Of a stretch of DNA of 64,000 nucleotides, positions 3,183 to 59,270 are shown piece after piece. This DNA is from Candidatus Parcubacteria bacterium (GTDB lineage: Bacteria > Patescibacteriota > Minisyncoccia > UBA6257 > 2-01-FULL-56-20), in contig DAIDJL010000004.1 in the NCBI GenBank assembly GCA_027450205.1, positions 75,932-139,931 of the forward strand. The letters are read 5' to 3'. The translations under genes were made by a program, and so were the position numbers. Each line of letters opens with the position of its first letter. The stretch's first letter is position 1. The notes under the pieces are model-generated. The model searched no databases. It was not told the DNA's origin and saw nothing but the letters and a program-made list of their open reading frames with translations.

Positions 3183-3200
3183 CCACTTAACTACGGGCCC
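3183..3200 (-). other. Displaced 18-nt 5' fragment of tRNA-Ala (acceptor 5' strand + D-stem/loop), followed on the minus strand by a GCGCC-N5-GGCGC hairpin (3165-3179)
   Basis: exact repeat of positions 1-18 of the intact copy. Confidence 0.6.
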
Positions 3201-3283
3201 TTATTACTGACTGATTATAAAGAAATTAAGAGGAATTTCAAGCTGCCGCATGTAAGCAATAGAGGTTTGCTATCATTAAATGA

Positions 3284-3610
3284 ATGGGAAGCAACCTGAT
3301 TTTGCCGGAGAATCCTACCTTGCGTGATCTGCAATCGTACGTCGCCGCGATGGTCAAAGAGCGGGGATTCGAGAAAGAGACCGTACCGGAGATCTTTATG
3401 CTGCTTATGGAAGAGTGCGGCGAGATGGCGAAGGCGGCGAGGAAGAGCCAGAACATTCACACCGACAAAAATTCGGAAAAATTCCATCTTGATCACGAGG
3501 CGGTGGATGTTCTCGTGTACCTGCTCGATATTTGTAACCATTTTAATATCGATCTCGAAAAAGCGTTCAGAGAAAAGGAGGAGATCAATAAGAAAAGAAG
3601 ATGGGAATAA
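3284..3610 (+). CDS. MazG-like nucleoside triphosphate pyrophosphohydrolase (small all-alpha NTP-PPase)
   Basis: EECGEMAKAARK ... EAVDVLVYLLDICNHFNIDLEKAF pattern typical of MazG/NTP-PPase domain. Confidence 0.55.
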   Translation: MGSNLILPENPTLRDLQSYVAAMVKERGFEKETVPEIFMLLMEECGEMAKAARKSQNIHTDKNSEKFHLDHEAVDVLVYLLDICNHFNIDLEKAFREKEEINKKRRWE

Positions 3611-3712
3611 TTTCCCTCACGGGTCCGATCCCGCACCCTCCATTTGCTATAATTAAATCAATACAAAAGGTCGATTTGTCGGACGGATTTTATAAAGATT
3701 TAATTAATTACC

Positions 3713-4396
3713 ATGGTTGTACAAAATTGGACGGATGTGGTGGTGGGTTCGCTTCAGAACCTCTGGTGGGGAGTTGTCAATTATCTGCCGAACCTGATCG
3801 GGGCACTTGTGGTGCTGATCATCGGCCTGATCGTGGCGGCGGGATTGGCGGCACTCGTGGAGAAGATCCTTGAAGCGTTCCGGCTGGATGTGTTCCTGGA
3901 GAAGATCGGGCTGAAGCCGATCTTTGAGCGCGCCGGGGTCAAGCTGCGCGCGGCGTACTTCTTCGGCAAGCTCGTGTACTGGTTCGTCATCGTTGCGTTC
4001 CTCGTGGCGATCACGGACAGTCTGCAGCTCTATGCGTTGTCGGTGTTCCTCGGGTCGGTGCTTAACTACTTGCCGAACGTGATTGCGGCGGTGCTCATCA
4101 TGCTTGCGGCGTTCATCGTGGCGCACTTCCTGCGCAAGCTCGTGACGGCGTCGGTGATGAGCGCGAAGCTTCACTCGGGACCGTTTCTCGGCATCGTCAC
4201 ATATTGGGCGATCGCCGTGTTCGGCGTTCTGACCGCGCTCGCGCAGTTGAACATCGCGACGGAGATCATTCAGACGATCGTCACCGGATTCATCGCGATG
4301 CTCGCGCTCGCCGGCGGCCTGGCCTTTGGCCTTGGCGGCAAGGACTATGCGAATCATCTGCTGAACAAGCTGAAAGATCGCACCGAGAATCATTAA
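3713..4396 (+). CDS. Membrane protein with repeated 'conserved TM helix' motifs (MscS N-terminal-like)
   Basis: two NYLPN(L/V)I..(V/L)..L repeats, 5-6 predicted TM helices. Confidence 0.5.
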   Translation: MVVQNWTDVVVGSLQNLWWGVVNYLPNLIGALVVLIIGLIVAAGLAALVEKILEAFRLDVFLEKIGLKPIFERAGVKLRAAYFFGKLVYWFVIVAFLVAITDSLQLYALSVFLGSVLNYLPNVIAAVLIMLAAFIVAHFLRKLVTASVMSAKLHSGPFLGIVTYWAIAVFGVLTALAQLNIATEIIQTIVTGFIAMLALAGGLAFGLGGKDYANHLLNKLKDRTENH

Positions 4397-18326: not shown

Positions 18327-20732
18327 ATGGCGACCTTTTATTTATTTCTAGGGATCGTACTCGGCGCGGTCATCGTGGCCGTGGCGTTCTTCATCATTCG
18401 TGCATTTGCCCGCCGCCGCATTTTCGACTCCCTGCAGACATCTCTTTTTTTGATAAGGATCCCGAAGGCGGCGCCGGCGGACCGGTCGCCCGCCGGCGGC
18501 GAGGGCAGCGACTTCAAGACGGAGCTTGCGCACTTCGAGCAGCTGCTTGGCGGCCTGTCTGCCATCAAAAAACCGATCGTGTTCGAGGTGGCGGTGCCGC
18601 ATATCGGCGAAGAGATCCATTTTTATATCGGTGTCCCGAAGCTTTCCGCCGAAGTGGCGATGAAGCAGGTCCAGGGATTATGGAACGGTGCGAGCGTTGA
18701 GCTCGTACAGGACGATTTCAATATCTTCAACGCGAACGGCGCGACCGTTGCGGCGTATGTGGCGCAGAAAGAGCATTACGCGCTGCCGGTGCGGACGTAC
18801 GCGGAGCTTGGCGTGGATTCATTCGAGTCTATCGTGGGTGCGTTCGCGAAGATCAGCGAGATCGGCGAGGGCGCATCGCTCCAGCTCGTGGTGCGCGCGG
18901 CATCGGGCGGCTACAAGAAGGAGATCTATCACTATATTGAGGCATTAAAGAAGGGCGAGCCGATCAAGAAAGTTCTGGGTAAGAGCATTGTCTCCGGCGT
19001 CAGCGCGTCCGACGTTGCGGACGTCTTCAATCCAAAAACAAAAGAGGAGCAAGCGGAGGAAAAAGCAAAGCGCGTGGTGGATGACGAGGCGGTGAAAGCG
19101 CTGCAACTCAAAGTGGCGAAACCGCTCTTTGAGGTGAACTTGCGGCTGGTGGCGTCCGCCGGGTCGCCATTCCAGGCAAACGATATCCTGGACGGGCTTA
19201 CGGCGGGGTTCAGCCAGTTCGGCAGCCCGATGCGCAACGATTTTCGGATCGTAAAGCCGCGCAATCCGAAAAATATCGTGAATGACTTCATCTATCGCAT
19301 GTTCGATGACGGAGAAAAAATGCTGCTGTCGAGCGAAGAGATCGCGAGCATCTGGCATCTGCCGATTTCGTCCACCGAGACGCCGCGTGTGAAGTGGCTT
19401 AAAGCAAAGGAAGCCCCGCCGCCGGACAACCTTCCGAACAAGGGCCTTCTTATCGGCGATGCGACGTTTCGCGGGGCGGCAAAGCCGGTGTACATCACGG
19501 ATGACGACCGGCGCCGGCATATATATGTGATCGGACAGACCGGCACCGGAAAATCCACTTTGCTCGGCAATATGATCATTGAGGATATCCAGTCCGGCAA
19601 GGGCGTGGCGATCATCGATCCGCACGGCGATTTGGTGGAGAACGCGCTCGGCTTCGTGCCGAAGGAGCGGCTGGACGACGTCATCTACTTCAATCCCGGC
19701 GACCTCGAGCGCCCGCTCGGGCTCAATATGATCGATTTCAATCCGGCGCGGCCGGAAGAGAAGACGTTCATCGTAAACGAGATGCAGAGCATCTTCAACA
19801 AGCTGTTTTCACAGGAAACGATGGGTCCGATGTTCGAGCAGTACATGCGTAATGCGCTGTTGCTCATGATGGAGGACGCCGCGAATGAACCCGCCACACT
19901 CGTGGAGGTGCCGCGCATCTTTACCGACGTGGAGTATCGCAAGCGCAAGCTCGCGCGTATCCATAATCCCGTCGTCATAGACTTCTGGGAGAAGGAGGCG
20001 GTGAAGGCCGGCGGCGAAGCATCGCTCGCGAACATGACGCCGTACATCACGTCAAAATTCAACAATTTCATCTCCAACGATTATATGCGGCCGATCATCG
20101 GCCAGCCCAGGTCCGCGTTCAACTTCCGCGACGTGATGGATAATAAAAAAATATTGCTTATCAACTTGTCGAAGGGAAAGATAGGGGACATCAATGCCGG
20201 TTTGCTCGGTATGGTCTTCACGGGGAAGATCCTCATGGCGGCACTTTCGCGCGTGGACATTGCGGACGCGGACAAGCGCACCGACTTCAATTTATATATA
20301 GATGAGTTCCAAAACTTCACCACCGATTCCATCGCGACGATCCTTTCTGAAGCGCGCAAGTACCGCCTGAATCTCACGATGGCGCACCAGTTTATCGCCC
20401 AGCTGGAGGAAAAGATCAAAGACGCCGTTTTCGGCAACGTGGGTTCCGAGCTTGTGTTCCGCGTCGGCGTGACCGATGCCGAATTTCTCGTGAAGCAGTT
20501 CGAGCCCGCATTCAACCAGAACGACCTCGTGAACATCGACAACCTCAACGCATACGCGAAGATCCTGATCAACGGGCAGACATCGAAGCCGTTCAACCTC
20601 AAGATCGGCACCACATCATGGGGCGGCGGCAATAAAGAGCTTGCGGAGAAATTAAAGCAATATTCGCGGATGAAGTATGGCCAGGACCGCCAGGCGATCG
20701 AGGATGATATTTTCAGGAGGCTGCGTTCGTAG
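18327..20732 (+). CDS. Fused membrane-anchored N-domain + TrwB/TraD/VirD4-type (FtsK-HerA superfamily) P-loop ATPase
   Basis: N-terminal TM helix; GQTGTGKST Walker A, IIDPHGD, VIYFNPGDLERPLGLNMI, LYIDEFQNF Walker B, LTMAHQFIAQL; N-terminal half homologous to 55031-56353, C-terminal half to 56381-58111. Confidence 0.7.
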   Translation: MATFYLFLGIVLGAVIVAVAFFIIRAFARRRIFDSLQTSLFLIRIPKAAPADRSPAGGEGSDFKTELAHFEQLLGGLSAIKKPIVFEVAVPHIGEEIHFYIGVPKLSAEVAMKQVQGLWNGASVELVQDDFNIFNANGATVAAYVAQKEHYALPVRTYAELGVDSFESIVGAFAKISEIGEGASLQLVVRAASGGYKKEIYHYIEALKKGEPIKKVLGKSIVSGVSASDVADVFNPKTKEEQAEEKAKRVVDDEAVKALQLKVAKPLFEVNLRLVASAGSPFQANDILDGLTAGFSQFGSPMRNDFRIVKPRNPKNIVNDFIYRMFDDGEKMLLSSEEIASIWHLPISSTETPRVKWLKAKEAPPPDNLPNKGLLIGDATFRGAAKPVYITDDDRRRHIYVIGQTGTGKSTLLGNMIIEDIQSGKGVAIIDPHGDLVENALGFVPKERLDDVIYFNPGDLERPLGLNMIDFNPARPEEKTFIVNEMQSIFNKLFSQETMGPMFEQYMRNALLLMMEDAANEPATLVEVPRIFTDVEYRKRKLARIHNPVVIDFWEKEAVKAGGEASLANMTPYITSKFNNFISNDYMRPIIGQPRSAFNFRDVMDNKKILLINLSKGKIGDINAGLLGMVFTGKILMAALSRVDIADADKRTDFNLYIDEFQNFTTDSIATILSEARKYRLNLTMAHQFIAQLEEKIKDAVFGNVGSELVFRVGVTDAEFLVKQFEPAFNQNDLVNIDNLNAYAKILINGQTSKPFNLKIGTTSWGGGNKELAEKLKQYSRMKYGQDRQAIEDDIFRRLRS

Positions 20733-24443: not shown

Positions 24444-24773
24444 CTATGTATGCCGTCTTTTGACCGCCTTTGGCATAAAGAGGGTGTGGAGATCGACGTC
24501 GAGCGCCACCGCGATGCGGATAAGTTCGCCAAGATCGGGATTTCCGTTTCCATCTTCGATGTCCCGAAGCGCATTGAGGGTAATGCCTATCCGGCGCGCG
24601 AACTCTTTTTGCGTAGGGGATGATCTCTCATCGCCGCCAAGGTGCCTTCGTCCATACCAGACGTTTTGTGCGAGTATATCGCTTGGTCCGGGGAGTGATC
24701 GCGGGCGGATGCGCGGAAGAGGTTCCGGTTCTGGTGCGTGGATCTCGGGTTTTTCGGGCGGGTGGTGTGGCAA
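24444..24773 (-). CDS. XRE-family helix-turn-helix transcriptional regulator
   Basis: SPTQKEFARRIGITLNALRDIEDGNGNPDLGELIRIAVALDVDL. Confidence 0.65.
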   Translation of the reverse strand: MPHHPPEKPEIHAPEPEPLPRIRPRSLPGPSDILAQNVWYGRRHLGGDERSSPTQKEFARRIGITLNALRDIEDGNGNPDLGELIRIAVALDVDLHTLFMPKAVKRRHT

Positions 24774-24897: not shown

Positions 24898-25266
24898 TCA
24901 TTCGCCTTCGACAAATACAATGTGGATCCCCGCGCGAAGGAGATCCTCCAAAATGACCGCGGCGCCGCATGTCATCTCTTTTCCGTTCAGTCGGAACGAC
25001 AGATCGTAGCCGAATGTCCTGGCGAGCCGATAGAGCGTCTGGACGGTGACATGCTTTTTTGTGTGCATGCCTCGTTCGATGTGAACGAGGGTTTTCAAAG
25101 AGACCCTTGACCATCGCGACAGCCAAAGATTGCCAAACCCCCTGTTGCGCAGCACGTTGTTGAGTGTACCCGCCAATTCATGGCGCAGATAGCACTGTTT
25201 GTCGACACTGACATCCTTTGTTCTTTCGGGAAAGGTTCCTGCAATTTCGATCGCTACATCGGACAT
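24898..25266 (-). CDS. XRE-family helix-turn-helix transcriptional regulator
   Basis: LSRWSRVSLKTLVHIERGMHTKKHVTVQTLYRLARTFGYDLSF; start set at MSDVAIE (ORF track extends to 25344 into the rnpB promoter). Confidence 0.65.
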   Translation of the reverse strand: MSDVAIEIAGTFPERTKDVSVDKQCYLRHELAGTLNNVLRNRGFGNLWLSRWSRVSLKTLVHIERGMHTKKHVTVQTLYRLARTFGYDLSFRLNGKEMTCGAAVILEDLLRAGIHIVFVEGE

Positions 25267-25337
25267 TTTTTCTCCCTTCAGAATACGCCACCGTGGCGTT
25301 ACTATGCCGCTTTTTATCGTACAAATAAGCCCCACGA

Positions 25338-25366
25338 TTGTCAATAAATTTGTGATGTGCTACAAT
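25338..25366 (+). promoter_or_regulatory. Sigma70-type promoter TTGTCA-17-TACAAT for rnpB
   Basis: consensus hexamers ~7 nt upstream of predicted P1 5' strand. Confidence 0.6.
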
Positions 25367-25372
25367 ATTTCT

Positions 25373-25835
25373 GCTGGTCATTCAGACGGTCGCTGCGCCA
25401 TGCGATGCCCTTAAAAGCAGAGTTCGCGCAGAGGAAAGTCCGGACACCCTCCGGTGTCGCCATAACCGGCGCCGGATAAAAAGGTAGCGGCTAACGGCCG
25501 CCGTTTGCAAGAATAGAGGTGCGAGCAGTGACGCCCGCGGACGCATGTCCGCTTGATAGGCCGGAAACGGCCTGGGGGACCCCATCCCGAGCTAGAAGGT
25601 CCAATTCCGCCATAGGGACAAAAAAGCGGAAGTGAAACGGCAAAATCCTTACTGGGTGCAAGGCCGTGCTCTCGTGCGATCCGCAAGGAAAATACGGGAG
25701 AGTGCCGCAGCGGTTCCGCGCGCAAGCGCGGCACCCGAGCCCGCGAGCGATCAAGGGCACAGATAAATGACCGTCCATCGGTGAGCGCTTTTACCGGCGC
25801 CGCCGGTCGACAGAATCCGGCTTATGGATTGCCAG
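25373..25835 (+). ncRNA. rnpB: RNase P RNA (bacterial type)
   Basis: GAGGAAAGTCCGG (P4 5' strand), GGAAGTGAAACGG, AGATAAATGACCGTCCA and ACAGAATCCGGCTTA (P4 3' strand) universal elements; P1/P2 pairing between 25373-25399 and 25821-25835. Confidence 0.8.
25818..25835 (+). repeat. DR0: native 3' end of rnpB (GCTTATGGATTGCCAGCC), prototype of the islet direct repeat
   Basis: exact/near-exact copies at 26224, 28204, 29629, 31421. Confidence 0.85.
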
Positions 25836-25870
25836 CCTTAGACGTCCCAGCAATGGGGCGTTTTTGATTT

Positions 25871-25898
25871 ATTTGACAGTTCTTATAGATATGCTATA
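25871..25898 (+). promoter_or_regulatory. Sigma70-type promoter TTGACA-16-TATAAT (islet A)
   Basis: consensus hexamers just after the rnpB terminator. Confidence 0.6.
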
Positions 25899-26223
25899 AT
25901 TCTCAACAGTTCCTAAGACGGCTACGGTCTAAAGAACTGCTTTACGAGCGCTTCAGTGGCCGTTCCAAAAGACGTTTCTCGGTCTGCGGGATGTAATACA
26001 GGGATACTTCGGAAGCATGACGACTTCTTGGTGCCCGAGGGAATCTGTCGAAGTCAATCTGCGAGTGGTAGGAAAACCATCTCGCAGATGGCATCATATA
26101 TCTCATACATAAAAGGGCGCACCAGCACTATCTGGAGCGCCCTTTATCTTTTGTATATATTTCGAGCGGGGACACTGAAATCATTAAACCTGATTAAATA
26201 GCCGTTCCCCTTAAGTGAATCCG

Positions 26224-26241
26224 GCTTACGGATTGCCAGCC
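26224..26241 (+). repeat. DR1: GCTTACGGATTGCCAGCC (1 mismatch) with upstream ATCCG extension; followed by terminator hairpin
   Basis: direct reading. Confidence 0.85.
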
Positions 26242-26271
26242 TGAAACGTCCCAGTAATGGGGCGTTTTTGT

Positions 26272-26300
26272 TTGACTAGCCTCCAATATTTTTCTATAGT
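26272..26300 (+). promoter_or_regulatory. Sigma70-type promoter TTGACT-17-TATAGT (islet B)
   Basis: consensus hexamers; SD AAGAGGTGAGG + ATG 26326 follow. Confidence 0.55.
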
Positions 26301-26325
26301 CTACGCAGCAGAAAAGAGGTGAGGT

Positions 26326-26799
26326 ATGATTGGAGTTCAACCGAAAATTGATAAACCATACGCGGAAATTGACCGACGGGGCGGTCGTGCTGCTATTGTC
26401 GAGCCAAGCGGCAAGCTCTGGATTGTGGACATTGCTGACGGGAACCCGCTTCAGGACGGCGAAGGTGTCCATATGGGAATGTTCCTACAACCGGGGATGA
26501 CGCGCCTTGAGTTCAAGGAAGCTGGCGAATTCCCATTTGTAGCACTCATCAATTACATACGGCAGGCCTATTTTCAGGAGAGCTGCCTTATGATGGTCCT
26601 GTTGGCCATTGACCCTCATCTTGGTAGCGGGCTTCGTACGGAGGCGCTCACTATGGCAACAGCGTTTATGAAAACACCCGGTACCAAGGACTGGATTGTC
26701 CAGCGATTGGCCGAGATGCTCCCGAATCTGGACGCCGATGTCGCAGGGTTGCCCCATTGCCAATTGAAGACGCTCCTTCGGGGAGTGCAGCAAAACTGA
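26326..26799 (+). CDS. Hypothetical protein (157 aa), islet B cargo
   Basis: strong SD, own promoter, ends before conserved terminator module. Confidence 0.55.
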   Translation: MIGVQPKIDKPYAEIDRRGGRAAIVEPSGKLWIVDIADGNPLQDGEGVHMGMFLQPGMTRLEFKEAGEFPFVALINYIRQAYFQESCLMMVLLAIDPHLGSGLRTEALTMATAFMKTPGTKDWIVQRLAEMLPNLDADVAGLPHCQLKTLLRGVQQN

Positions 26800-26804
26800 C
26801 GCTA

Positions 26805-26886
26805 GGGGCGCGCCAGCAATAACCGGTGCGCCCTTTCTCTTTGCCCAACACTCAATAACCCCGTCTAAAAAGCGGGGTTTTTAGTT
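26805..26886 (+). terminator. Conserved double-terminator module M1 (GGGGCGCGCC-AGCAATAA-CCGGTGCGCCC TTTCTCTTTGCCCA ... CCCCG-N-CGGGG TTTTTAG)
   Basis: near-identical modules at 28844 and 30778; variants at 26118 and 29584. Confidence 0.7.
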
Positions 26887-26923
26887 GGGGATGTGCGGGA
26901 AAGCTGCAGGTGGGGGCTACCTT

Positions 26924-27565
26924 TTACACGCCGCTTACTTTTGGTTTTAGCTTTTTATATAAGCTAATAGTGTTCACAAAAAGGTTGATTTTCTTATTTC
27001 TGTTTAAAACATAGACGTAGGCATTGCCCTCAACGAAGCCGCAAAAGGCGGGAGCAATTGGGGTTTCAATAATCTCAAGCTTTGCGGTTCCATGCTCTAA
27101 GGCCGTTGCAATGATTTCCAGGCTATTAGCGCATGCGATTACACTAGAAAGAATATCGGCATTTTCCCCATAGAAGGATTCCCACGCCTTGATTCCTTGA
27201 CTGAACTCTGGCGACTTGGAGGCTTCCTCTGCGTTAAAATTCCGCATCTCTAGGTTTGGCAATGAACCATGCTGTCTGCTATTGATTATAAGGCGAAAAC
27301 CATCGCTATCGGCTAAAAATTTTTCGAAGTGTCTTAGCTCTTCTATGGCTACAGTTTCTCTCGTAAGGGCTGTCTGTTTTCTCTGTTCGGATATTTGAGC
27401 GAGGGCGTAGATTGCGATAGGAATCAATGAAATCTGGGCGGCGGCTGACAGCCCGGCAATCCACAGAGTTACGCTACTGTTAAGCGCCACAAAGGTTACG
27501 ATGCCACATATTATCCCTACGCAGATTCCTACGGCAACCGCTCTAATCGTACTCGTCACATTCAT
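26924..27565 (-). CDS. Hypothetical membrane-anchored protein (213 aa)
   Basis: two N-terminal TM helices then soluble domain. Confidence 0.5.
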   Translation of the reverse strand: MNVTSTIRAVAVGICVGIICGIVTFVALNSSVTLWIAGLSAAAQISLIPIAIYALAQISEQRKQTALTRETVAIEELRHFEKFLADSDGFRLIINSRQHGSLPNLEMRNFNAEEASKSPEFSQGIKAWESFYGENADILSSVIACANSLEIIATALEHGTAKLEIIETPIAPAFCGFVEGNAYVYVLNRNKKINLFVNTISLYKKLKPKVSGV

Positions 27566-27635
27566 GCTTCAATCCTACGCCCATGTTAGAGTTCGTCAAA
27601 CTTGCGGATTTTTGCCTAAGGCGTAAGCTTTTGGC

Positions 27636-28013
27636 ATGAACGACAAGAAGGAGGAAGAGCAATACCTACAAGAAGATAAGGACCTTTTGGAGGAGCTGGA
27701 AGCAATCGGACCAGCCAGCACGGGTACTGCAGCAACAATGCAGGCATACAAATTCGCACGACTACAAATCAAAGCATCACTGCGTAGCCGTAAGACCTCT
27801 AATGACCTCATCCGGTCAAACGAAAAGTTCTCTATCGCGCTCATTGCATTCGCATTTGCTCAGCTCATACTTGGCCTTTTTCAATTCCTTTTTGATGCAA
27901 GCACGTCCACCCATCAAATACTGGGATTTTTCTACGCGATTATAGCGGCAGGTATGGTGGTTTATGTATTTATATTGGGGGATTTTGATTTAGAAGCTGC
28001 TTTGTTATACTGA
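27636..28013 (+). CDS. Hypothetical protein with acidic N-terminus and two C-terminal TM helices (125 aa)
   Basis: ORF + hydrophobicity. Confidence 0.45.
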   Translation: MNDKKEEEQYLQEDKDLLEELEAIGPASTGTAATMQAYKFARLQIKASLRSRKTSNDLIRSNEKFSIALIAFAFAQLILGLFQFLFDASTSTHQILGFFYAIIAAGMVVYVFILGDFDLEAALLY

Positions 28014-28203
28014 ACCTAGTTGTTGTAACGGATTTCCAGTGGGCGGAGTTTGCCCATAAGCTCTACGGAGGAAATCGGAACATCGATACTGGAATGAAGG
28101 CAAGCAGCCCGGAGCTAGCTGGTAGGGTAACGGCCTACCTGGGCGATGATGGGTAAAAATGGGGCGATACCGCGTGCACACGGTCGCCCCCTTTAATTTT
28201 TTA

Positions 28204-28221
28204 GCTTATGGATTGCCAGCC
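28204..28221 (+). repeat. DR2: GCTTATGGATTGCCAGCC exact
   Basis: direct reading; followed by terminator hairpin acagcttc/gagctgt + T5. Confidence 0.85.
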
Positions 28222-28323
28222 GAGAACAGCTTCAGCAATGGAGCTGTTTTTGTTATAAAAACGTGCTAAATTAAATCCAGCAGATTCTCTGCTAGAGCCA
28301 CAATCTGTGGTAGGAGAATATCC

Positions 28324-28830
28324 ATGGAAAGAACGGAACCAGTTATGGTCGTGCCCCCCGTGTATTTACTTCCATCAATCGGACTTTGGCGTTGGTGCAA
28401 ACTTGGGGATGTCTGTGACCTAGTGCCAAACGTCGCAATGCTGGCTGGGAATACCTACGCACCTTCACTTGAGGAACTAGTGAGAGATTTCGCCGCACTG
28501 GTCCGACACAACGTAGCTCCCGAAGGTAGCCCTGCTGAAAAACCACCCGGCAAAAAAATGTTTCGTTATTCGTTTGGAGGAGATTTGCGTGCAACTGAGG
28601 TGTTGAGTCTTGGGCAAACCAACACCGACCCGCCGTACGTTCAGTTCAAACTTGATGACCCATTGAGTCGAGATATGTTTATTCCAGAGGGCTGGGCGCG
28701 AGATGTACTCCGCGCAATTCATGGTGGAGCAGTTGCGGCAGTTCAATGGGACAATCGACTTGTTGGATTTCCCGAGGATAAACAAAAAAGACTCATACCC
28801 CTCGGAAGGGCGAGAACGACGAAGGAGTAA
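28324..28830 (+). CDS. Hypothetical protein (168 aa), islet C cargo
   Basis: AGGAG SD; ends before module M2. Confidence 0.5.
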   Translation: MERTEPVMVVPPVYLLPSIGLWRWCKLGDVCDLVPNVAMLAGNTYAPSLEELVRDFAALVRHNVAPEGSPAEKPPGKKMFRYSFGGDLRATEVLSLGQTNTDPPYVQFKLDDPLSRDMFIPEGWARDVLRAIHGGAVAAVQWDNRLVGFPEDKQKRLIPLGRARTTKE

Positions 28831-28843
28831 TATGAGAACGCAA

Positions 28844-28917
28844 GGGGCGCACCAGCAACACCGGTGCGCCCTTTCTCTTTGCCCAGTCCTCAATCCTCCG
28901 GTGATGGGGGATTTTTG
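28844..28917 (+). terminator. Conserved double-terminator module M2
   Basis: GGGGCGCACCAGCAACACCGGTGCGCCCTTTCTCTTTGCCCAGTCCTCAATCC ... GGGGGATTTTTG. Confidence 0.7.
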
Positions 28918-28918
28918 A

Positions 28919-28947
28919 TTGACTGAGCTGCTCAATAATGATATATT
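28919..28947 (+). promoter_or_regulatory. Sigma70-type promoter TTGACT-17-TATATT
   Basis: immediately after M2. Confidence 0.5.
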
Positions 28948-28976
28948 ACCGATAGTTCCAAAACGCAGGAGGCGTT

Positions 28977-29249
28977 ATGGCTATTGGACCGCACGATGTT
29001 CGTAAATTGACTTCGGATGAGATAATTCACGTCGAGCGTCTGGAGAAGGAAATTGACGCATGTCTTCGGGCGCAGAACGGCAGAAGGGGAAAGGAAGCGT
29101 CCTTCTCATCTAAAGAAATTGTAAATCAGACAGTTTTGGATGAGCTCGCGTCCCGTTACAGGGCCGCAGGATGGAAAGAAGTGAATCCTACGCTGGGCAC
29201 TGTGGGTTTTGCAATTCGATTTGCGAACCCCGCGGACTATCTCGACTAA
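28977..29249 (+). CDS. Hypothetical protein (90 aa)
   Basis: AGGAGG SD. Confidence 0.5.
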   Translation: MAIGPHDVRKLTSDEIIHVERLEKEIDACLRAQNGRRGKEASFSSKEIVNQTVLDELASRYRAAGWKEVNPTLGTVGFAIRFANPADYLD

Positions 29250-29261
29250 AAAAGGAGGCGC

Positions 29262-29555
29262 ATGGAAGAAAAGGGATGCATGTATCGTCGCGTAGAAATA
29301 TCGTCAGAGCGCGGGGCGATATTCAAAAAAGTAGATTTCCACGGCACCCTCGCCGAATACAAGACGAACTTTGCATTACCGCACCTTGCACTAGCGGCGT
29401 GGAGTATTCGAAAAGCGGGGTACATATTGGTCTATCGTGCCGTGGAAGAATTTCCGTTTCTGCATGGCATCTTCGTACCGGATAGAGTTTCCCGCGAAGT
29501 AGTACTAAATCGGGTACGAGCAAGCTGGGGTGCGACGAGCCAATTACAGGACTGA
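29262..29555 (+). CDS. Hypothetical protein (97 aa)
   Basis: AAGGAGG SD. Confidence 0.5.
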   Translation: MEEKGCMYRRVEISSERGAIFKKVDFHGTLAEYKTNFALPHLALAAWSIRKAGYILVYRAVEEFPFLHGIFVPDRVSREVVLNRVRASWGATSQLQD

Positions 29556-29628
29556 TTCAGAATTGAGATGGGCACATAACAAGGGCGCACCAAGCAACAT
29601 GGCGCGCTCTTTTTTTGCCCCAGCTCCG

Positions 29629-29646
29629 GCTTATGGATTGCCAGCC
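29629..29646 (+). repeat. DR3: GCTTATGGATTGCCAGCC exact, with upstream CTCCG extension
   Basis: direct reading. Confidence 0.85.
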
Positions 29647-29745
29647 GAGAACAGCTTCAGAAATGAGGCTGTTTTTGTTTATCACTGTTTGATTTCTTAT
29701 AACTATCATTCTAGAATCCAGACAGTAATCCCACGAAAGGAATTT

Positions 29746-30072
29746 ATGGAAAACACGCTCAAAAAAGGCATTGATTACGTCGGCGTTACGGTGGTTTATT
29801 TTTGCCATGACGGGAATGGCAGGTTTGTGATGGCAAAGCGTAAGAACACCACCCGTGATGAATTTGGGCGGTGGGATATCGGTGGCGGAGGATTGGAATT
29901 CAACGACACAGTGGAAGGAACCCTTCGCAAGGAAATCAAAGAGGAATATTGTGCGGACGTCTTGGATTATGAATTCTTGGGCTACCGCGATGTTCACCGC
30001 GAACATGAAGGGAAGCCGACTCACTGGGTAGCGCTCGACTTCAAGGTCCGTATTGGAGCTGTTTTTGTTTGA
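29746..30072 (+). CDS. Small Nudix hydrolase (109 aa)
   Basis: Nudix box GGGLEFNDTVEGTLRKEIKEEYCA; start set at MENTLKK (track ORF 29530 runs through DR3); stop lies inside a terminator-like sequence. Confidence 0.6.
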   Translation: MENTLKKGIDYVGVTVVYFCHDGNGRFVMAKRKNTTRDEFGRWDIGGGGLEFNDTVEGTLRKEIKEEYCADVLDYEFLGYRDVHREHEGKPTHWVALDFKVRIGAVFV

Positions 30073-30098
30073 CATATCACATATTATAAATGTATAAT
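30069..30098 (+). promoter_or_regulatory. Sigma70-type promoter TTGACA-18-TATAAT
   Basis: consensus hexamers. Confidence 0.5.
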
Positions 30099-30151
30099 AT
30101 AACCAGCTTTTAACGTCGAGCGAATATTCTGACTCCTGGAGGGTCGACACC

Positions 30152-30763
30152 ATGGTTCATCTTTTTCAGAACGAAATCTTTATGGGATGGCTGGCAGTAG
30201 CTATTATGCTTGCTGCCTATGCATCCCAACTGTGGAAAACGTGGCTCGGCCGTTCAGAGCCACATCCAATCGCATGGTTCGGATTCGGTCTCCTTACGGG
30301 GGTCGGTTACCTTGTCCAAATACAAGAAGGCGCGGCCAGTGGAAGCTGGGTTATGGGATTTACTTCCATTTTCTGTTTTCTCGTAGGCGGCCTGAGTATG
30401 TATAAGAAGCGGTGGCGAATGGCCGACTTTAGCAAATGGGACTGGGGAGCGCTTGTCGCAGGACTCCTACTTTTTGTGTTCTATCTGAGTTCAAAAACGT
30501 TGTCATGGGGACCATTCTTGTCGGCTATCCTCGCAACATCTGCTGATGTGGTTCTATATATCCCCATCTTCAGAAGGACGTGGTCACATCCCGTCAAAGA
30601 AACCGCGACTGCCTATGGATTGAACAGTCTTAAATTCATTCCGTCGCTCTTTGCTATGGGAGCATATTCCATAGCGACATGCCTCTATCCTGCAACACTG
30701 ATAGTTGTGAATGCATCTGTGGTGGTATGGCTTGTGTGGCGTCGCCGTATGGTTGCCGCATAG
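30152..30763 (+). CDS. Hypothetical polytopic membrane protein (203 aa, ~6 TM)
   Basis: GGAGGG SD; hydrophobicity. Confidence 0.5.
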   Translation: MVHLFQNEIFMGWLAVAIMLAAYASQLWKTWLGRSEPHPIAWFGFGLLTGVGYLVQIQEGAASGSWVMGFTSIFCFLVGGLSMYKKRWRMADFSKWDWGALVAGLLLFVFYLSSKTLSWGPFLSAILATSADVVLYIPIFRRTWSHPVKETATAYGLNSLKFIPSLFAMGAYSIATCLYPATLIVVNASVVVWLVWRRRMVAA

Positions 30764-30777
30764 CATTCTTTCATACA

Positions 30778-30851
30778 GGGCGCACCAGCAACAACGGTGC
30801 GCCCTTTTTCTTTGCCAAGCCTGAGAACCCGCGCGAAAGCGCGGGTTTTTG
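30778..30851 (+). terminator. Conserved double-terminator module M4
   Basis: GGGCGCACCAGCAACAACGGTGCGCCCTTTTTCTTTGCCAAGCCTGAGAACCCGCGCGAAAGCGCGGGTTTTTG. Confidence 0.7.
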
Positions 30852-30939
30852 ATTGGCGCGCGCAGGAAAGCTTCAATGGCAACATTATTGACGATGACAC
30901 GTTCTTCCTTATAGACTCTTAGTAGTCGAGGAGGCCGTC

Positions 30940-31371
30940 ATGACGCGACCACTGCAAAAAGAAAACCTTCTTTGGAAGATAACCGCATGGCTCTCGCGCA
31001 ATGAGCCGCACGGGCACGAATTTTCGATCTGGGTCTCTCCATTGTTTCTTAAAACAGCAAAGCACCTTTCGTATGACGAGGAGCGGCTCCAGGCCTCCGT
31101 ACGGGCGCTTGCCGAAAAGGCCGGCATGAAGGTCTCGCAGGGATGCCGATATCTCTCCTTCGGAACATGGGGGCTTCAGGCGATAGATCTGCTTGATGGC
31201 GGACGATGCTTCCATTTGGAGATGTCATCCGAAGGAGGATTTATGTATACGGGCGGAAAGTGGGCGACGCATAACATCGATCACGCCGGGGACCAGTCTC
31301 TCTTGATGGCCATATGGCTCTTGTGGGCGCAGTTCGTCGAGGCGGAGATCGGTGCGCGTGGCAGTTCATGA
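30940..31371 (+). CDS. Hypothetical protein (143 aa)
   Basis: GAGGAGG SD. Confidence 0.5.
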   Translation: MTRPLQKENLLWKITAWLSRNEPHGHEFSIWVSPLFLKTAKHLSYDEERLQASVRALAEKAGMKVSQGCRYLSFGTWGLQAIDLLDGGRCFHLEMSSEGGFMYTGGKWATHNIDHAGDQSLLMAIWLLWAQFVEAEIGARGSS

Positions 31372-31420
31372 ATGCAGCACGGGCAGCTTCGAACACACGA
31401 GGCTGCCTGTTTTCTTTCTT

Positions 31421-31437
31421 GCTTATGGATTGCCAGC
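31421..31437 (+). repeat. DR4: GCTTATGGATTGCCAGC (17/18), distal boundary of the array
   Basis: direct reading; flanking sequence differs from other copies. Confidence 0.8.
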
Positions 31438-31690
31438 AACGGGCATGTGCGGGAGCGGCAGGCGGGGATTCATGAAGAAAATGGGTAGCGGGCTCGTGAG
31501 CCCGCTACCCATGGTACAGCAACCGGTGGAACAATGAGCAACCGCACGAAGCATCCAATGCCGTGTATGCATATTGTCCTCCTTTTCCGTAAAGTAGTTA
31601 CTGTTAATTCCATTATAGCAGAGCTGTCAATAGGTAAAATACGTTCTCCGGTCAACTCCGGGATCAAAAGAAACGAGAAGTTACTAAGAG

Positions 31691-42223: not shown

Positions 42224-42694
42224 ATGAAGCAAACCAATATTTGCTTCCTGCTGAAAGACGGGTGGGTTCTTCTTGGAATGAAGAAACGGGGTTTTGGCAT
42301 GGGAAAGTGGAATGGGTTTGGCGGGAAGGTAAAGGATGATGAAGATGTAAAGATCGCCGTTATACGGGAAATAAAAGAAGAGGTCGGCGTGGATGTCGCT
42401 ATTGATGACCTAAAGGAGATGGGAACACTCGATTTCCGCTTTCAGGCAGCTCCCGATTGGGACAATTTCTGTCATATTTTTATCGCCACCGCGTGGTCGG
42501 GCGAACCTTCCGAATCCGAAGAAATGCGTCCGCAATGGTACGGGATGGATAAATTACCGTTCGATTCGATGTGGGTCGACGATCCGTATTGGGTACCGCT
42601 CGTGCTTTCGGGAAAAAAAATAAAAGGCAGATTCCTTTTTGATGACAGCGGAAAGGAGATCCTTAATTTTGCGGTCTCCGAGGTTCACCCATAA
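42224..42694 (+). CDS. Nudix hydrolase (MutT-like)
   Basis: Nudix box GGKVKDDEDVKIAVIREIKEEVGV. Confidence 0.75.
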   Translation: MKQTNICFLLKDGWVLLGMKKRGFGMGKWNGFGGKVKDDEDVKIAVIREIKEEVGVDVAIDDLKEMGTLDFRFQAAPDWDNFCHIFIATAWSGEPSESEEMRPQWYGMDKLPFDSMWVDDPYWVPLVLSGKKIKGRFLFDDSGKEILNFAVSEVHP

Positions 42695-45014: not shown

Positions 45015-45189
45015 GGACCTCGTTGTATCGAGCTGCCCCTTCACAATTGAAATGGTAAGATAACCAAAAGAGAGAGTTTTTTAGTTGTCCCAATTTATTC
45101 TTTTTGGCAACGTTAAGAAGTAATCAAATGTTGCAACAATAAAATTAGGATCAACGTCCAAAGTTTTTGAGACTTTGGACGATATCTTT

Positions 45190-46740
<1,551 letters not shown>

Positions 46741-46835
46741 ATTAAACTACTATTTGGATAAATAGTAACAGTCGAACTTTCTTCTCTTTGGCCGGCGATC
46801 GATCGCAGGCGAAAGCGAGGGAGGTAATTGGGACA

Positions 46836-46850
46836 ACTAAAAAGCTCTTT
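46836..46850 (+). other. 3' arm (aattgggacaactaa) of 16S precursor processing stem pairing with 45081-45095 (ttagttgtcccaatt)
   Basis: exact 15-bp complementarity across the 16S gene. Confidence 0.7.
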
Positions 46851-46869
46851 GTATGCTAGAATGAATACT

Positions 46870-47247
46870 ATGGCAGATTCGTTAAAAAAGATCATGATCA
46901 TCGAGGACGACCATTTTTTGTCGTCGCTTATGAAAGCCCGTCTTGAGAAGGAGGGATTCATGGTTGTGCAGGCCTTCGATGGCGAAGAGGCATTGCAAAT
47001 GCTCAAGGCTGAAATACCGGCGCTGGTCATCCTGGATCTCATCATGCCGAAGGTCACGGGATTCGAAGTGCTGCAGATGATCTCGATCACTCCGCAGCTG
47101 GATAAAGTGCCTGTCGTGATCGTGAGCAATCTTGCCCAGGATTCCGATATCGAGAAGGCTCGTCAGCTCGGCGCACGGGAATATTTCATAAAGGTGAAAA
47201 TATCCATAGACGACCTTGTTGGCAAAATTAAAAGTTTGGTGGTATAG
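46870..47247 (+). CDS. Single-domain response regulator (REC only)
   Basis: [10 protein letters not shown] ... LVILDLIMP; start set at MADSLKK. Confidence 0.7.
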
Positions 47248-47275
47248 TCTTCGAACAAAACATTCATACAAGAAA

Positions 47276-47578
47276 ATGATCTCAGAAGAAATCCTCAAAA
47301 AAATAAAACCTGGGGCGAAAGTGAAGGTATACGAGGGCAAGACCCCGTTTGCCGGTTTGGTGATCGCCCGCAAGCATGGTTCCGAGCCGGGTGCAACGTT
47401 CACGGTGCGTACCGTTCTTGCCGGTGTCGGCGTGGAGAAGGTCTATCCCATCCATTCGCCGTCCATCATCAAGATCGAGGTTTCCTCGAGCCCAAAGAAA
47501 GTGCATCGCGCAAAACTGTACTTTGTTCGCAAGGCATCCGCTTCGCGGATCCGGCAGAAGCTGGATGTGTCGATGTAA
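47276..47578 (+). CDS. rplS: 50S ribosomal protein L19
   Basis: [41 protein letters not shown] ... RAKLYFVRK; start set at MISEEIL. Confidence 0.85.
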
Positions 47579-47657
47579 AAAATAAATCGCGTAGCCTTTT
47601 CGCTCGTGCGAAGATGAATTCGTTCAAGGGCCAACCGGTTTATTTTTTTTACCTCAT

Positions 47658-48782
47658 TCAATCAATGGTGTCCGTGATAAGCGGCGGCGTGGAGCTGACG
47701 ATCACGACATTAAAGCGCAGTTGTCCCACGAGCTGGCCGGTCGGCAGTTTGACATTCACGCGCCACGCACCTGCGGTGATGTTTCCCACAAGGGAAAACG
47801 TGCGCCAGCCCTGACTGCCGCCGCCGGTCGTAGGAAGCACGATGCGCCCACGCGTGACCCATGCTTTTTGCGCGGGATCATAGGTTTGCCATTCATGGAT
47901 GACGCTGGTATTGAATGCAGTAGGGGAGAAGATGGCAGTATATGCATAGAGCGTCGCACCGGGTTGGACGTGAATGGTCGGGCTCCATTCAAAGAACGAG
48001 AGCCATCCCTGATTTTCCGCTTGCGCGGTATAGTTGCCGGGGCTGTTCACAGTAAACGATTGATAGATGCCGGCGTCCTTGAGCGAGATCGGCAATGGCG
48101 GGATAAGGTTCGCAAAATAGAGCGCATTTACGGTGACGAGGACGCCAGCGATGGAAAGTCCTGCTACCCACTTCGTCTTTTTGGGAAATGGTTCGCGCGA
48201 AAATATTTTAAGCACGCCGGCGAACGCGCCGATCGCGGCCAGTGCCACTGCGCCGCTCAAAAGGAATATCCCATGGTTGATCGCGTGGAAAAAGATCGGC
48301 AGGAGATAGATTGCGAACGCGTAATATGAAAGAAAGATGAGCGAGAGCTGGAACGCGAGCCGTGCGTAGTGCCGTTTGAACCGCTCGTTTGCAATGAACG
48401 CGGCGGCGAGGAGCGCAAGGAACGGCCAGCTGGAAACGATCGTGCCGCTTCGGAAGTAGAAGACGAGGAACGTGCTGAAGATGCCGCCGAAGAAGAACTG
48501 CATCACGTTCACCAGCCAGAAGTGCAGTTTCTCCGGATTCTCTTCGCCGCCGGGCTCGTTCTCTATAAGGTGGATGAGCAGTGCGCAAACCGTCACGATT
48601 GCAAGGTGTCCGACCACCCAGAAGTTTTCCCAGAACTCGTCCACGCGGGTGAGCGTTACCGCGTCGAATACGAATCCGGCGATAAGCGAGAGAGAAGAGA
48701 ACGGACCTTCGATACGCGCGTAGAAATGGCGTGCGTGGGTGAGGAGGTTTTTCTTTTTCGGTGTATCGGATGTGTCGGGCAT
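47658..48782 (-). CDS. Hypothetical polytopic membrane protein with C-terminal extracytoplasmic domain (374 aa)
   Basis: ~8 TM then beta-rich Thr/Gly/Trp-containing domain. Confidence 0.5.
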   Translation of the reverse strand: MPDTSDTPKKKNLLTHARHFYARIEGPFSSLSLIAGFVFDAVTLTRVDEFWENFWVVGHLAIVTVCALLIHLIENEPGGEENPEKLHFWLVNVMQFFFGGIFSTFLVFYFRSGTIVSSWPFLALLAAAFIANERFKRHYARLAFQLSLIFLSYYAFAIYLLPIFFHAINHGIFLLSGAVALAAIGAFAGVLKIFSREPFPKKTKWVAGLSIAGVLVTVNALYFANLIPPLPISLKDAGIYQSFTVNSPGNYTAQAENQGWLSFFEWSPTIHVQPGATLYAYTAIFSPTAFNTSVIHEWQTYDPAQKAWVTRGRIVLPTTGGGSQGWRTFSLVGNITAGAWRVNVKLPTGQLVGQLRFNVVIVSSTPPLITDTID

Positions 48783-48979
48783 GTATAGATATAGGATACC
48801 GCGTTTTAATGATTTTTTAATTGGCGATCTAATCTGCGAAACAAAATATGCGAAAGCCGAGACATTGAAATTATTGCTAAAGATGTATTATAATCCCGAA
48901 GTGGTTTGTCTATCTCGAAAGCGCGATAAGATAGAAAAAGCGTTGGCGGTGGAAGGGTATCACTTGTTTTCTTAAAAAT

Positions 48980-49060
48980 GCGCGGGTGGCGAAATGGCAG
49001 ACGCACTACCTTGAGGTGGTAGCGCCGAAAGGCGTGGAGGTTCGACTCCTCTCCCGCGCA
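48980..49060 (+). tRNA. tRNA-Leu (anticodon GAG), class II with long variable arm; no encoded CCA
   Basis: manual fold GCGCGGG-TG-GCGAAATGGCAGACGC-A-CTACC-TTGAGGT-GGTAG-CGCCGAAAGGCGT-GGAGG-TTCGACT-CCTCT-CCCGCGC-A. Confidence 0.75.
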
Positions 49061-49301
49061 CAAAATAAAAAGCTACAGCGGTTTCTCAAAAATCATCCAG
49101 GCATGCCTCCCAGATAATTTTGCGCTGTAGCTATCTCCTCCCCAGGGCTTCGAGGTACTGAATTGATAGGCAATCAACGGCGATGGATCGCCAGAGGGCG
49201 GAAAAGGAGGTTGGCCACCCCGATTCTCATCGTTCTTTATCATCACGAAGTCCTAAATGTTTTATACTCCAGAGTTCGAACATCGTCCAATCTGGCGTAC
49301 T

Positions 49302-58826: not shown

Positions 58827-59270
58827 ATGGCAGATTTCATCGTTCTTTCGTTGGCACGACTCCTTTCGCAAGTATATCGAAATTTACGAAAGAAGTTGGC
58901 GCTTTTTAATACGGCAAAACGCGTTGACGGGTACAAACCCAGCGTGCGGCGCCTTAATCTTCGTCGGGCACTTCTGCCCGAGTTGAGGACCCACGCACGG
59001 ACGATCAAGCGGTATCAAGAAAAGCTTGATTATTGGCGCCTTCAAAAGCGTAAAGAAAAATCCCGCATCAAGAGAAAGCATTGCGAAGACAATATCAATG
59101 CCATTAAAATTCTGATCTATAACCAAAGGCTCAAGTGTGAGAAAATTTGGAAACACCTCAAAGCGTACGACGCATTGCCGGTGGACTCTTCGACCAAGCG
59201 GCCATGGCAAAGCATAGATGCTTATATTGAGCATCTGAGCGTCGCCAAGAAAGAGGCATTGTATGCATGA
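58827..59270 (+). CDS. Hypothetical basic protein (147 aa)
   Basis: Lys/Arg-rich ORF; overlaps comEC start by 4 nt. Confidence 0.4.
   Translation: MADFIVLSLARLLSQVYRNLRKKLALFNTAKRVDGYKPSVRRLNLRRALLPELRTHARTIKRYQEKLDYWRLQKRKEKSRIKRKHCEDNINAIKILIYNQRLKCEKIWKHLKAYDALPVDSSTKRPWQSIDAYIEHLSVAKKEALYA

Follow-up and report, generated by a model that had tools for sequence, protein, structure and literature searches.

Patescibacteria (the Candidate Phyla Radiation, CPR) have very small genomes with few recognisable mobile elements, and the means by which they gain accessory genes are still in question. The question takes a concrete form at the RNase P RNA gene (rnpB) of a Candidatus Parcubacteria bacterium, whose 3′ terminus recurs several times in the DNA that follows it. 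We analysed a window of 64,000 nucleotides (nt) from this genome (assembly GCA_027450205.1, contig DAIDJL010000004.1, positions 75,932 to 139,931; coordinates below are those of the window), which a first-pass annotation made from the letters alone had read as a tandem array of gene islets left by serial site-specific integration at the end of rnpB. The locus is an array of at least eight small transcription units joined at copies of the rnpB terminus, with cargo of foreign character, and its content differs among relatives and, with breakpoints at the rnpB-derived cores, between two near-identical strains.

The repeat is indeed the 3′ end of rnpB, as had been supposed. A sensitive Rfam search aligns the full RF00010 model (positions 1-367) to 25374-25839 with 70.8 bits (E 2e-20), under the gathering score of 100, and a run at the gathering threshold reported only the 16S rRNA and two tRNAs for the window. 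Insertions and missing helices are known to make lower thresholds necessary for CPR RNase P RNAs (PMC8172020). The candidate comprises the full model with both P4 strands, contains the conserved GAGGAAAGUCCGG and ACAGAAUCCGGCUUA, and closes helix P1 by pairing CUGGUCAUUCA with GGAUUGCCAG, which identifies it as a class A RNase P RNA. The 3′ end of the RNA, as aligned to the model, reads ...ACAGAAUCCGGCUUAU-GGAUUGCCAGCCUU, so that the repeat corresponds to the end of the P4 3′ strand followed by the P1 3′ strand.

The rnpB terminus GCTTAYGGATTGCCAGC is present in five copies within 5.6 kb. Written as the 18-mer GCTTATGGATTGCCAGCC, it lies on the + strand at 25820, 26224 (one mismatch), 28204, 29629 and 31421 (last base A); 0.06 matches are expected by chance, none of 100 shuffled sequences reached five, and the window holds no other match with up to three mismatches. 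The number of copies, their positions and their spacings (404, 1980, 1425 and 1792 nt) agree with the earlier description. Alignment of the five copies with their flanks shows an invariant 17-nt block, to the left of which identity with rnpB continues for 7 nt in copies 1 and 2, for 3 nt in copy 4 and not at all in copies 3 and 5; the longer form attributed to three copies is thus found as ATCCGG in two (25813 and 26217), copy 4 having just CCGG. On the 3′ side, copies 1-4 continue with C and then a terminator hairpin, as had been noted, whereas copy 5 continues with A and unrelated sequence, without a hairpin.

25374-25839, + strand: rnpB, bacterial class A RNase P RNA (RF00010), 466 nt with large insertions
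25813-25837, + strand: copy 1, GAATCCGGCTTATGGATTGCCAGCC, the native rnpB terminus (last 25 nt)
26217-26241, + strand: copy 2, GAATCCGGCTTACGGATTGCCAGCC, a C variant identical to the native rnpB end of the close strain L157 (24/24)
28204-28221, + strand: copy 3, GCTTATGGATTGCCAGCC, with a T-run directly 5′
29626-29646, + strand: copy 4, CCGGCTTATGGATTGCCAGCC
31421-31438, + strand: copy 5, GCTTATGGATTGCCAGCA, then AC; distal end of the array

The four segments delimited by these copies resolve into at least eight units, since three more junctions lie at 26840, 28878 and 30811. Each is a decayed short core after a conserved GGGCGCACC...GGTGCGCCC hairpin, the HP1 module (GGGCGCACCAGCAAcAnCGGTGCGCCC then TTTCTCTTT), which occurs five times, at 26115, 26806, 28845, 29583 and 30778. 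The degenerate rnpB-end remnants TTTGCCCAAC, TTTGCCCAG and TTTGCCAAGCC follow HP1 and are themselves followed by a terminator and a promoter. At the matching HP1 position the relatives L027 and L068 (L-numbers designate loci from other assemblies) carry TTTTCTTT-TGCCAGCC-TGAAACGTCCCAG..., which indicates that the short-core sites are equivalent junctions whose core has been shortened. Core lengths at the junctions are 25, 21 or 18 nt, or a decayed 8-11 nt, and except after copy 5 an rnpB-type intrinsic terminator comes next. Seven units hold one or two open reading frames (ORFs) and one has no convincing ORF; the layout is terminator, promoter, Shine-Dalgarno (SD) site, ORF(s), terminator, within 0.4-1.4 kb. 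The conserved terminator module that was thought to end every segment closes five units only.

25838-26216, + strand: unit 1, no convincing ORF; terminator T1-A 25842-25861, promoter 25873-25900, HP1 (GGGCGCACC hairpin) 26115-26142
26242-26849, + strand: unit 2; T1-A 26246-26265, promoter 26272-26300, HP1 26806-26833
26326-26799, + strand: ORF c2 of unit 2, 157 aa, orphan
26840-26849, + strand: decayed short core TTTGCCCAAC of unit 2
26850-28203, unstranded: unit 3; terminator 26857-26879, terminator hairpin 28161-28190
26924-27565, - strand: ORF of unit 3, 213 aa, membrane protein
27636-28013: ORF of unit 3, 125 aa, membrane protein
28222-28886, + strand: unit 4; terminator T1-B 28226-28247, HP1 28845-28871
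28324-28830, + strand: ORF c4 of unit 4, 168 aa, orphan
28878-28886, + strand: decayed short core TTTGCCCAG of unit 4
28887-29625, + strand: unit 5; terminator 28892-28913, promoter 28919-28947, HP1 29583-29609
28977-29249 and 29262-29555, + strand: ORFs of unit 5, 90 aa and 97 aa
29614-29624, + strand: short core TTTGCCCCAGC of unit 5
29647-30054, + strand: unit 6; T1-B 29651-29672, promoter 29689-29717, NUDIX ORF from 29746
30055-30821, + strand: unit 7; 3′ half of T1-B 30055-30068, perfect promoter 30069-30098, HP1 30778-30804
30152-30763, + strand: ORF c7 of unit 7, 203 aa, membrane protein
30811-30821, + strand: decayed short core TTTGCCAAGCC of unit 7
30822-31420, + strand: unit 8; terminator 30826-30847, promoter-like site 30888-30917
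30940-31371, + strand: ORF c8 of unit 8, 143 aa
31381-31407, + strand: HP3 hairpin of unit 8, GGCAGC...GCTGCC with TTTTCTTTCTT tail

The near-consensus promoter ascribed to each segment stands only in part: promoter-like sites are not above chance in number (10 against 7.1 +/- 2.4), yet two are perfect 12/12 matches to the consensus and all lie just 3′ of terminators. The unit 1 promoter is a perfect sigma70 site (TTGACA-16-TATAAT, 12/12), and its predicted 246-nt transcript folds with z = -5.06 relative to shuffled controls; unit 1 (25873-26152) may specify a candidate small RNA of ~245 nt, or a 31-aa peptide. The NUDIX ORF of unit 6 (29746-30072) covers only positions 4-87 of the 134 in profile PF00293, as the unit boundary at 30055, with its 3′ half-terminator and perfect promoter, cuts the ORF at about codon 103; this truncation at ~30054 is a deletion scar inside the array. 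A full-length NUDIX cassette (169 aa) adjoins the c8 homolog in L142, and the window has a separate housekeeping-type NUDIX gene at 42224-42694.

The hairpins that follow the cores are ordinary intrinsic terminators, with GNRA-type loops and with G-U pairs that can form in the sense RNA only. Terminator and promoter modules were considered as element-specific signals and rejected, as ordinary loci share their style. The array-specific element is the rnpB-derived core. TTGCCAGC is found at five places in the array and at a single other place in the window, and a junction profile built from 16 junctions and tested on 1.2 Mb (150 records, including ~105 unrelated bacterial loci) matched rnpB-downstream arrays only, where it revealed further junctions in L032, L139 and L007. 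The repeat is thus no generic sequence, in agreement with the first-pass annotation. The profile also gives a weak match at 28884-28924, at the end of unit 4.

The units are discrete modules, as comparison with L157 demonstrates. L157, a 2-kb contig from a separate assembly and the sole near-identical strain compared, is overall ~96-99% identical to the window (95.9% in the rnpB part). Unit 1 is wholly missing from it, c2 stands directly after rnpB, and its native core, including the C variant, is what the window carries as displaced copy 2. The c2 unit matches the window at 52/52 positions in the promoter and 5′ untranslated region and at 469/474 in the ORF, and the junction at 36/36; unit 2 is 99-100% identical from the -35 box to the terminator tail, and homology ends at 26842. 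Past the c2 hairpin, identity drops to 48% exactly at the short core, beyond which L157 has a unit with a 245-aa ORF that the window does not contain. Units therefore differ between near-identical strains, and the breakpoints coincide with the cores. L157 also has an ORF-less unit, of ~190 nt.

Relatives show the same locus with different content. A 17-mer scan of a genome collection returned mostly chance matches, with ~14 of 120 loci being true rnpB ends (Patescibacteria/Paceibacterota metagenome-assembled genomes), and extra copies of the 17-mer are present in four of these. The upstream order pgk-DHH-RNaseH-(HTH)-rnpB, where HTH denotes helix-turn-helix genes, is kept in five or six of the loci, whereas the downstream side is not conserved; altogether, conserved upstream synteny combined with different downstream units is seen at about a dozen related loci of Patescibacteria. 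A metagenome scan and look-ups of cargo homologs added arrays in L131/132, L136, L137, L139, L142 and L145-148, with PEMT/ICMT methyltransferase, NUDIX, dienelactone hydrolase, HAD hydrolase, CHAP, FAD oxidase and orphan genes as cargo. In more distant relatives rnpB adjoins mgtA, which lies 11 kb beyond rnpB in the window: mgtA follows rnpB directly in L109, and mgtA-mgtC-aspS-...-nudix-prfA follow it in L021, so that both loci are apparently empty sites. L134 has the frame rnpB, units, three accessory genes, cfa and mgtA, filled with 3.7 kb as against 10.1 kb in the window and with one ORF in common. These comparisons, together with the absence of unit 1 from L157, bear out the expected variation in unit number and content. 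The identical architecture recurs in independent NCBI, ENA and JGI assemblies, including long-read complete chromosomes.

The form of the terminus bears on insertion at the rnpB end. Single-copy relatives mostly have GCCAGCA, often as GCCAGCAAC, and copy 5 of the window is of this ancestral type; the copy attached to rnpB reads GCCAGCC and has a junction-type terminator. An ancestral form at the distal copy 5 is what is expected if the original terminus was displaced. L146 presents the simplest case, a single ~0.8-kb unit (terminator, promoter, c8 homolog, hairpin) between rnpB and a decayed second terminus, CTTATGGATTACTAGTAACCAGAGA..., which retains the ancestral terminator and is still similar to the native L142 end with its terminator, GCTTATGGATTGCCAGCAACCAGAGA....

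The cargo differs from the backbone of the host genome. With the exception of the truncated NUDIX, cargo ORFs have no Pfam, PHROG or PADLOC assignment, and three are predicted membrane proteins; looking for defence systems, we obtained one weak NUDIX match from PADLOC and NUDIX only from PHROGs. The G+C fraction of the array cargo is 0.46-0.50, against ~0.55 in the flanks. SD matches of at least 4 nt precede 9/9 cargo ORFs and of at least 5 nt 7/9, a length that no more than 4% of backbone genes attain; longest matches average 5.4 nt for cargo and 2.1 nt for 45 backbone genes (Mann-Whitney p = 3e-6), as the earlier annotation had perceived, and three relatives show the same contrast. The host 16S gene (45189-46748) ends, at 46700-46748, in ...GGATCAATTAAACT instead of ...GGATCACCTCCTTA, and the host is therefore devoid of the canonical CCUCC anti-SD. 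A -10 box lies 4-14 nt upstream of the start codon in 7/44 backbone genes (background 3%), a position that suggests leaderless mRNAs for backbone genes, whereas cargo -10 boxes lie 25-29 nt upstream. The G+C fraction, the SD sites and the 16S end without anti-SD support a foreign origin of the cargo. They also raise the question how, or whether, SD-rich genes get translated in such a host; our literature search found no report of anti-SD loss in Patescibacteria. Between the 125-aa ORF and the terminator of unit 3, a 45-nt 16S-like fragment (28108-28152; AGCTAGCTGGTAGGGTAACGGCCTACC... helix, 29 bits, E 3e-5) differs from the host 16S at the homologous position and may be a scrap of foreign rDNA.

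Two cargo genes, c8 and c7, have homologs at other loci. The c8 family has nine close members, and every examined case stands in an rnpB array (four lineages), at varying rank (8th, 3rd, about 3rd and 1st). More broadly it comprises 54 clusters at 50% identity (including P0053-P0105), of ~125-150 aa, with near-invariant F28, G78, N112 and D114; no Pfam domain was found among 49 family members, and the AlphaFold model, although confident (predicted local distance difference test score, 81), has no relative in PDB or BFVD. A role of c8 as a small HUH-type enzyme was considered and rejected, given that a fold relative and a Pfam match are missing, that a distant member does not lie by rnpB and that the family diverges in step with the host. 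c8 is probably an old founder cargo gene. Homologs of c7 elsewhere lie on elements that encode large serine recombinases, tyrosine integrases or relaxases, which shows that classical mobile elements and the array have a cargo pool in common, yet without a link to the rnpB site. In L141 (2461-3951), probably also from Patescibacteria, the c7 homolog accompanies a large serine recombinase, a coupling protein, a relaxase and a primase; in L144 it accompanies tyrosine integrases and an excisionase, and L143 likewise has a conjugative/integrative context.

As to how the units came to stand behind rnpB, we favour, at about even chances, accretion of cassettes at an rnpB-derived attachment (att) site through a site-specific recombinase acting in trans. 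A circular cassette carrying an attP-like module (terminator hairpin, T-tail, rnpB-like core and terminator) would recombine with the rnpB terminus. The incoming unit would supply the final rnpB bases and a new terminator, keeping rnpB intact, and the previous terminus would be pushed distally and then decay, leaving the newest unit proximal. In copy 1 the inverted repeat AATCC/GGATT flanks the 7-nt spacer GGCTTAT, a putative core site; the general form GAATCC-GGCTTAY-GGATTG, with a 5-bp inverted repeat and a 7-bp spacer, matches the arm-spacer-arm geometry of a tyrosine-recombinase core. A crossover in GGCTTAY would predict a block made of the overlap and the rest of rnpB, (G)GCTTAYGGATTGCCAGC, which is the commonest repeat form (18-19 nt). 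Homologous recombination or gene conversion between junctions would later reshuffle terminators and delete units, and short cores could arise from the 18-mer by an 11-nt slippage deletion between two TTGC motifs.

The left boundaries of rnpB identity at the junctions (J) fall into three classes: (i) GAATCC... in window J2, L068, L076 and L007, (ii) GCTCCGG... in window J4 and L137, and (iii) (G)GCTTAY... in window J3 and J5 and twice in L023. Discrete boundaries that recur in independent junctions and genomes favour a site-specific process. The serial integration first proposed is thus upheld in its geometry, in the displaced ancestral terminus GCCAGCAAC and in the breakpoints at the cores, whereas its site-specific step is an inference of ours and homologous recombination accounts as well for much of that geometry.

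As stated before, the array encodes no recombinase: integrases, resolvases, transposases and reverse transcriptases are absent from the ORFs of the 64-kb window, related arrays contain no site-specific recombinase, and no integrase remnant was found in ~25-30 units over about a dozen arrays. With none in the cassettes or the window, the proposed recombinase must act in trans. Viral-contig scans for a phage attP with the 17-mer and with the core site gave seven matches each, all rejected because they fall within coding ORFs or lack rnpB context; a scan for the HP1 hairpin gave one unrelated match, and blastn of the whole array against PLSDB and INPHARED gave none. L023 has a Mutator/IS256-family transposase fragment of 274 aa (3191-4015, - strand) just beyond its rnpB array, the sole transposase among the arrays.

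Several observations weigh against a trans-acting recombinase as the whole account. Besides the absence of the enzyme itself from the window and the relatives' arrays, we found neither a circular form nor an attP on a phage or plasmid. Between core and promoter, the window and L157 have different terminators though the promoter is 100% identical, and c8 ends in an HP3-type terminator in the window and L142 and in an HP1-like one in L068 and L146. Terminators are thus not linked to cassettes, and extra events are needed (gene conversion, or cycles of integration and excision). Junctions with short cores (8-11 nt) do not include the proposed overlap and need the 11-nt slippage deletion or another crossover, and some units of relatives, as in L142, have no adjacent core. 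Junction modules in one genome resemble each other pairwise. The style of terminators and promoters, including the T-run abutting a TTGACA -35 box, is also seen at ordinary loci of the window. L157 apart, turnover is visible only between lineages ~20% diverged in Pgk, so that ongoing activity is no more than a possibility.

The unlinked terminators, the varying c8 terminators and the pairwise-similar modules make homologous recombination part of the story. Exchange between the 36-57-nt junction modules, by homologous recombination or gene conversion, certainly contributes, and homologous recombination could be the whole engine after the founding event. We regard as possible rather than probable the reading that there is no dedicated recombinase and that units move by host homologous recombination in these modules, circles forming from two junction repeats or linear fragments arriving by transformation, and re-entering by a Campbell-type single crossover or a double crossover; the founding duplication alone would then need another mechanism. 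The junction repeats have the length that this requires (57 nt at 91% and 51 nt at 94% identity within the array, and the perfect junction match between strains), terminators swap independently of cassettes, and the pairwise likeness within a genome is that of concerted evolution. The length of rnpB identity ranges from 5 to 25 nt, the window encodes ComEC and two TraG/VirD4-like ATPases, and the failure to find a recombinase in the window or related arrays is as this reading would have it. However, homologous recombination would scatter the left boundaries, which instead recur identically across independent junctions and genomes. Several junctions share just 8-18 nt, a poor RecA substrate, and both the first duplication of the rnpB terminus and the uniform unit architecture are left unexplained.

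The accretion of cassettes by a trans-acting recombinase can be extended, tentatively and with less than even confidence, to an integron-like platform of Patescibacteria in which the rnpB terminus serves as acceptor, junction modules of ~90 nt as cassette sites, and an unlinked chromosomal gene supplies the recombinase. Promoter-bearing mini-cassettes would be inserted and excised and would circulate between lineages, probably via natural transformation. If true, the platform would represent a second cassette system of independent origin, and one of the main routes by which genomes otherwise without mobile elements gain genes.

That the units are decayed remnants of integrase-bearing islands or prophages, serially integrated into rnpB and then stripped of integrases and most genes, is very unlikely, and it is the least supported of the three options that the first-pass annotation had offered. 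Degenerate remnants of tandemly accreted elements are familiar from tRNA and tmRNA genes, decayed cores exist, and the truncated NUDIX is a deletion scar; but repeated decay would have had to remove every integrase fragment from all units and arrays surveyed, and the neat, uniform transcription units (terminator, core, terminator, promoter) are unlike random deletion products. Moreover, the single c8 unit of L146 has rnpB termini on both sides, and two strains carry the c2 unit as a discrete module. Scarcely credible is a proposal in which the junction copies are 5′-truncated retro-copies of the rnpB transcript 3′ end, inserted into terminator T-runs between existing units: each copy does begin at a varying position of rnpB, extends through the T-run of an rnpB-type terminator and stands after another T-run, and the native rnpB terminators of L157, L022 and L027 are homologs of T1-B, but the copies lie solely downstream of rnpB, are never dispersed and occur at no other terminator within 64 kb, the window has no reverse transcriptase, and neither whole-unit presence/absence nor the clustering of foreign cargo is explained. 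The idea that the repeat is generic to intergenic DNA, or an artefact of assembly, and has nothing to do with rnpB is effectively refuted, although GCAA-loop terminator hairpins and T-runs abutting a -35 box do occur elsewhere in the window, since the core is the rnpB terminus and array-specific and the architecture recurs in independently assembled genomes.

Among known systems, modules bounded by recombination sites and devoid of their own recombinase include the cis-mobilizable elements (CIMEs) of the Streptococcus ICESt family, the integrative mobile elements exploiting Xer (IMEX) and the pdif modules of Acinetobacter, which rely on a helper or host enzyme. No helper element was found for the array, and its site derives from an RNA gene. 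The core has 5-7-5 rather than 11-6-11 geometry and does not appear dif-like, no sequence similarity having been seen; the junctions, read directly, show nothing with the geometry of the 28-bp dif-like site that bounds Xer-dependent modules. Elements of the IS200/IS605 insertion sequence family have a Y1 HUH transposase of ~140 aa and make no target duplication, whereas c8 has no Pfam match and a distant family member that is not beside rnpB, and the junctions duplicate 18-25 nt; the array does not belong to this family.

The closest likeness is to islands at tRNA and tmRNA 3′ ends (Islander/TIGER; Williams 2002; PMC7192596), which likewise have a direct repeat of the target-gene 3′ end at each junction, an incoming element that restores the target, older termini that move distally, and serial accretion with decaying scars. 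The array shares with them the target 3′-end repeat beside an intact target (also in L146) and the breakpoint polymorphism at the att repeats. It departs from them in that the target is rnpB, not a tRNA or tmRNA gene, that units measure only 0.4-1.4 kb, and that none encodes an integrase by the att site. Large island surveys demand at least one integrase and at least 2 kb (PMC7192596), and thereby exclude such arrays by design. We found no report of rnpB as an attachment site in the searchable literature.

Integrons and clusters of attC sites lacking integron-integrases (CALINs) resemble the array in their mostly single-ORF cassettes of ~0.5-1 kb, largely of unknown function, without recombinase and strain-variable, and in the conserved hairpin-containing module that closes each cassette. 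The array is a small, variable cassette array as well, but there is no intI in 64 kb, nor a Phage_integrase domain in any ORF of the window; its junctions lack attC features (no GTTRRRY core, no imperfect R/L boxes), and its hairpins are perfect GC-rich intrinsic terminators with G-U pairs and T-runs. Its cassettes have their own promoter and SD site where integrons use a common Pc promoter, and it is anchored at the end of an RNA gene. Tycheposons of Prochlorococcus (bioRxiv 10.1101/2020.12.28.424599) likewise inhabit a streamlined genome with few classical mobile elements and form islands by structural RNA genes, with partial gene copies between insertions and newer elements pushing older ones inward. 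They have tyrosine recombinases, replication modules, six tRNAs and tmRNA as targets, and multi-kb length, none of which applies here. The array thus extends the known tRNA/tmRNA type of island accretion and adds integron-like features.

For Patescibacteria, the locus is a concrete, repeatable acquisition site, with modular units, strain-level turnover and a 17-25-nt target in a universally essential RNA gene. It widens the rule of 3′-end structural-RNA targeting from tRNA and tmRNA to RNase P RNA, and its sub-2-kb, integrase-free units form a class outside current island finders. The defined att-like sequence makes the missing recombinase searchable and testable.

Upstream of the array stand two small genes that were considered as a recombinase or excisionase and rejected, as both encode Cro/C1-type HTH proteins.

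24444-24773 and 24898-25344, - strand: Cro/C1-type HTH genes, divergent from rnpB, between RNase H and rnpB

L022, L027, L032, L068, L076, L142 and L145-148 have one to three small HTH genes at the corresponding position; L100, which has no array, appears to be without them. A regulatory link of the HTH genes to the array or to rnpB is possible.

All remaining ORFs of the window have housekeeping or otherwise recognisable products, among them RNase III, SMC, MurI, EF-P, MnmA, ProRS, MreBC, PBP2, Pgk, pyruvate kinase, Cfa, MgtA, MgtC, AspRS, Ndk, RF1, SecDF, TrmD, ComEC (59267-60769) and FtsW. Two paralogous TraG/VirD4/HerA-like ATPases (DUF87, T4SS-DNA_transf, TrwB) lie at 18327-20732 and 56381-58111, one of them within a conserved neighbourhood upstream of pgk that is also present in L145. 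These ATPases and ComEC may form DNA-uptake machinery relevant to cassette transfer. The only tRNA genes of the window are at 3042 and 48980. The 16S gene is followed by no 23S gene (45189-49061) and instead by protein-coding ORFs and then tRNA-Leu (48980); unlinked rRNA genes have been reported for most CPR (PMC8172020).

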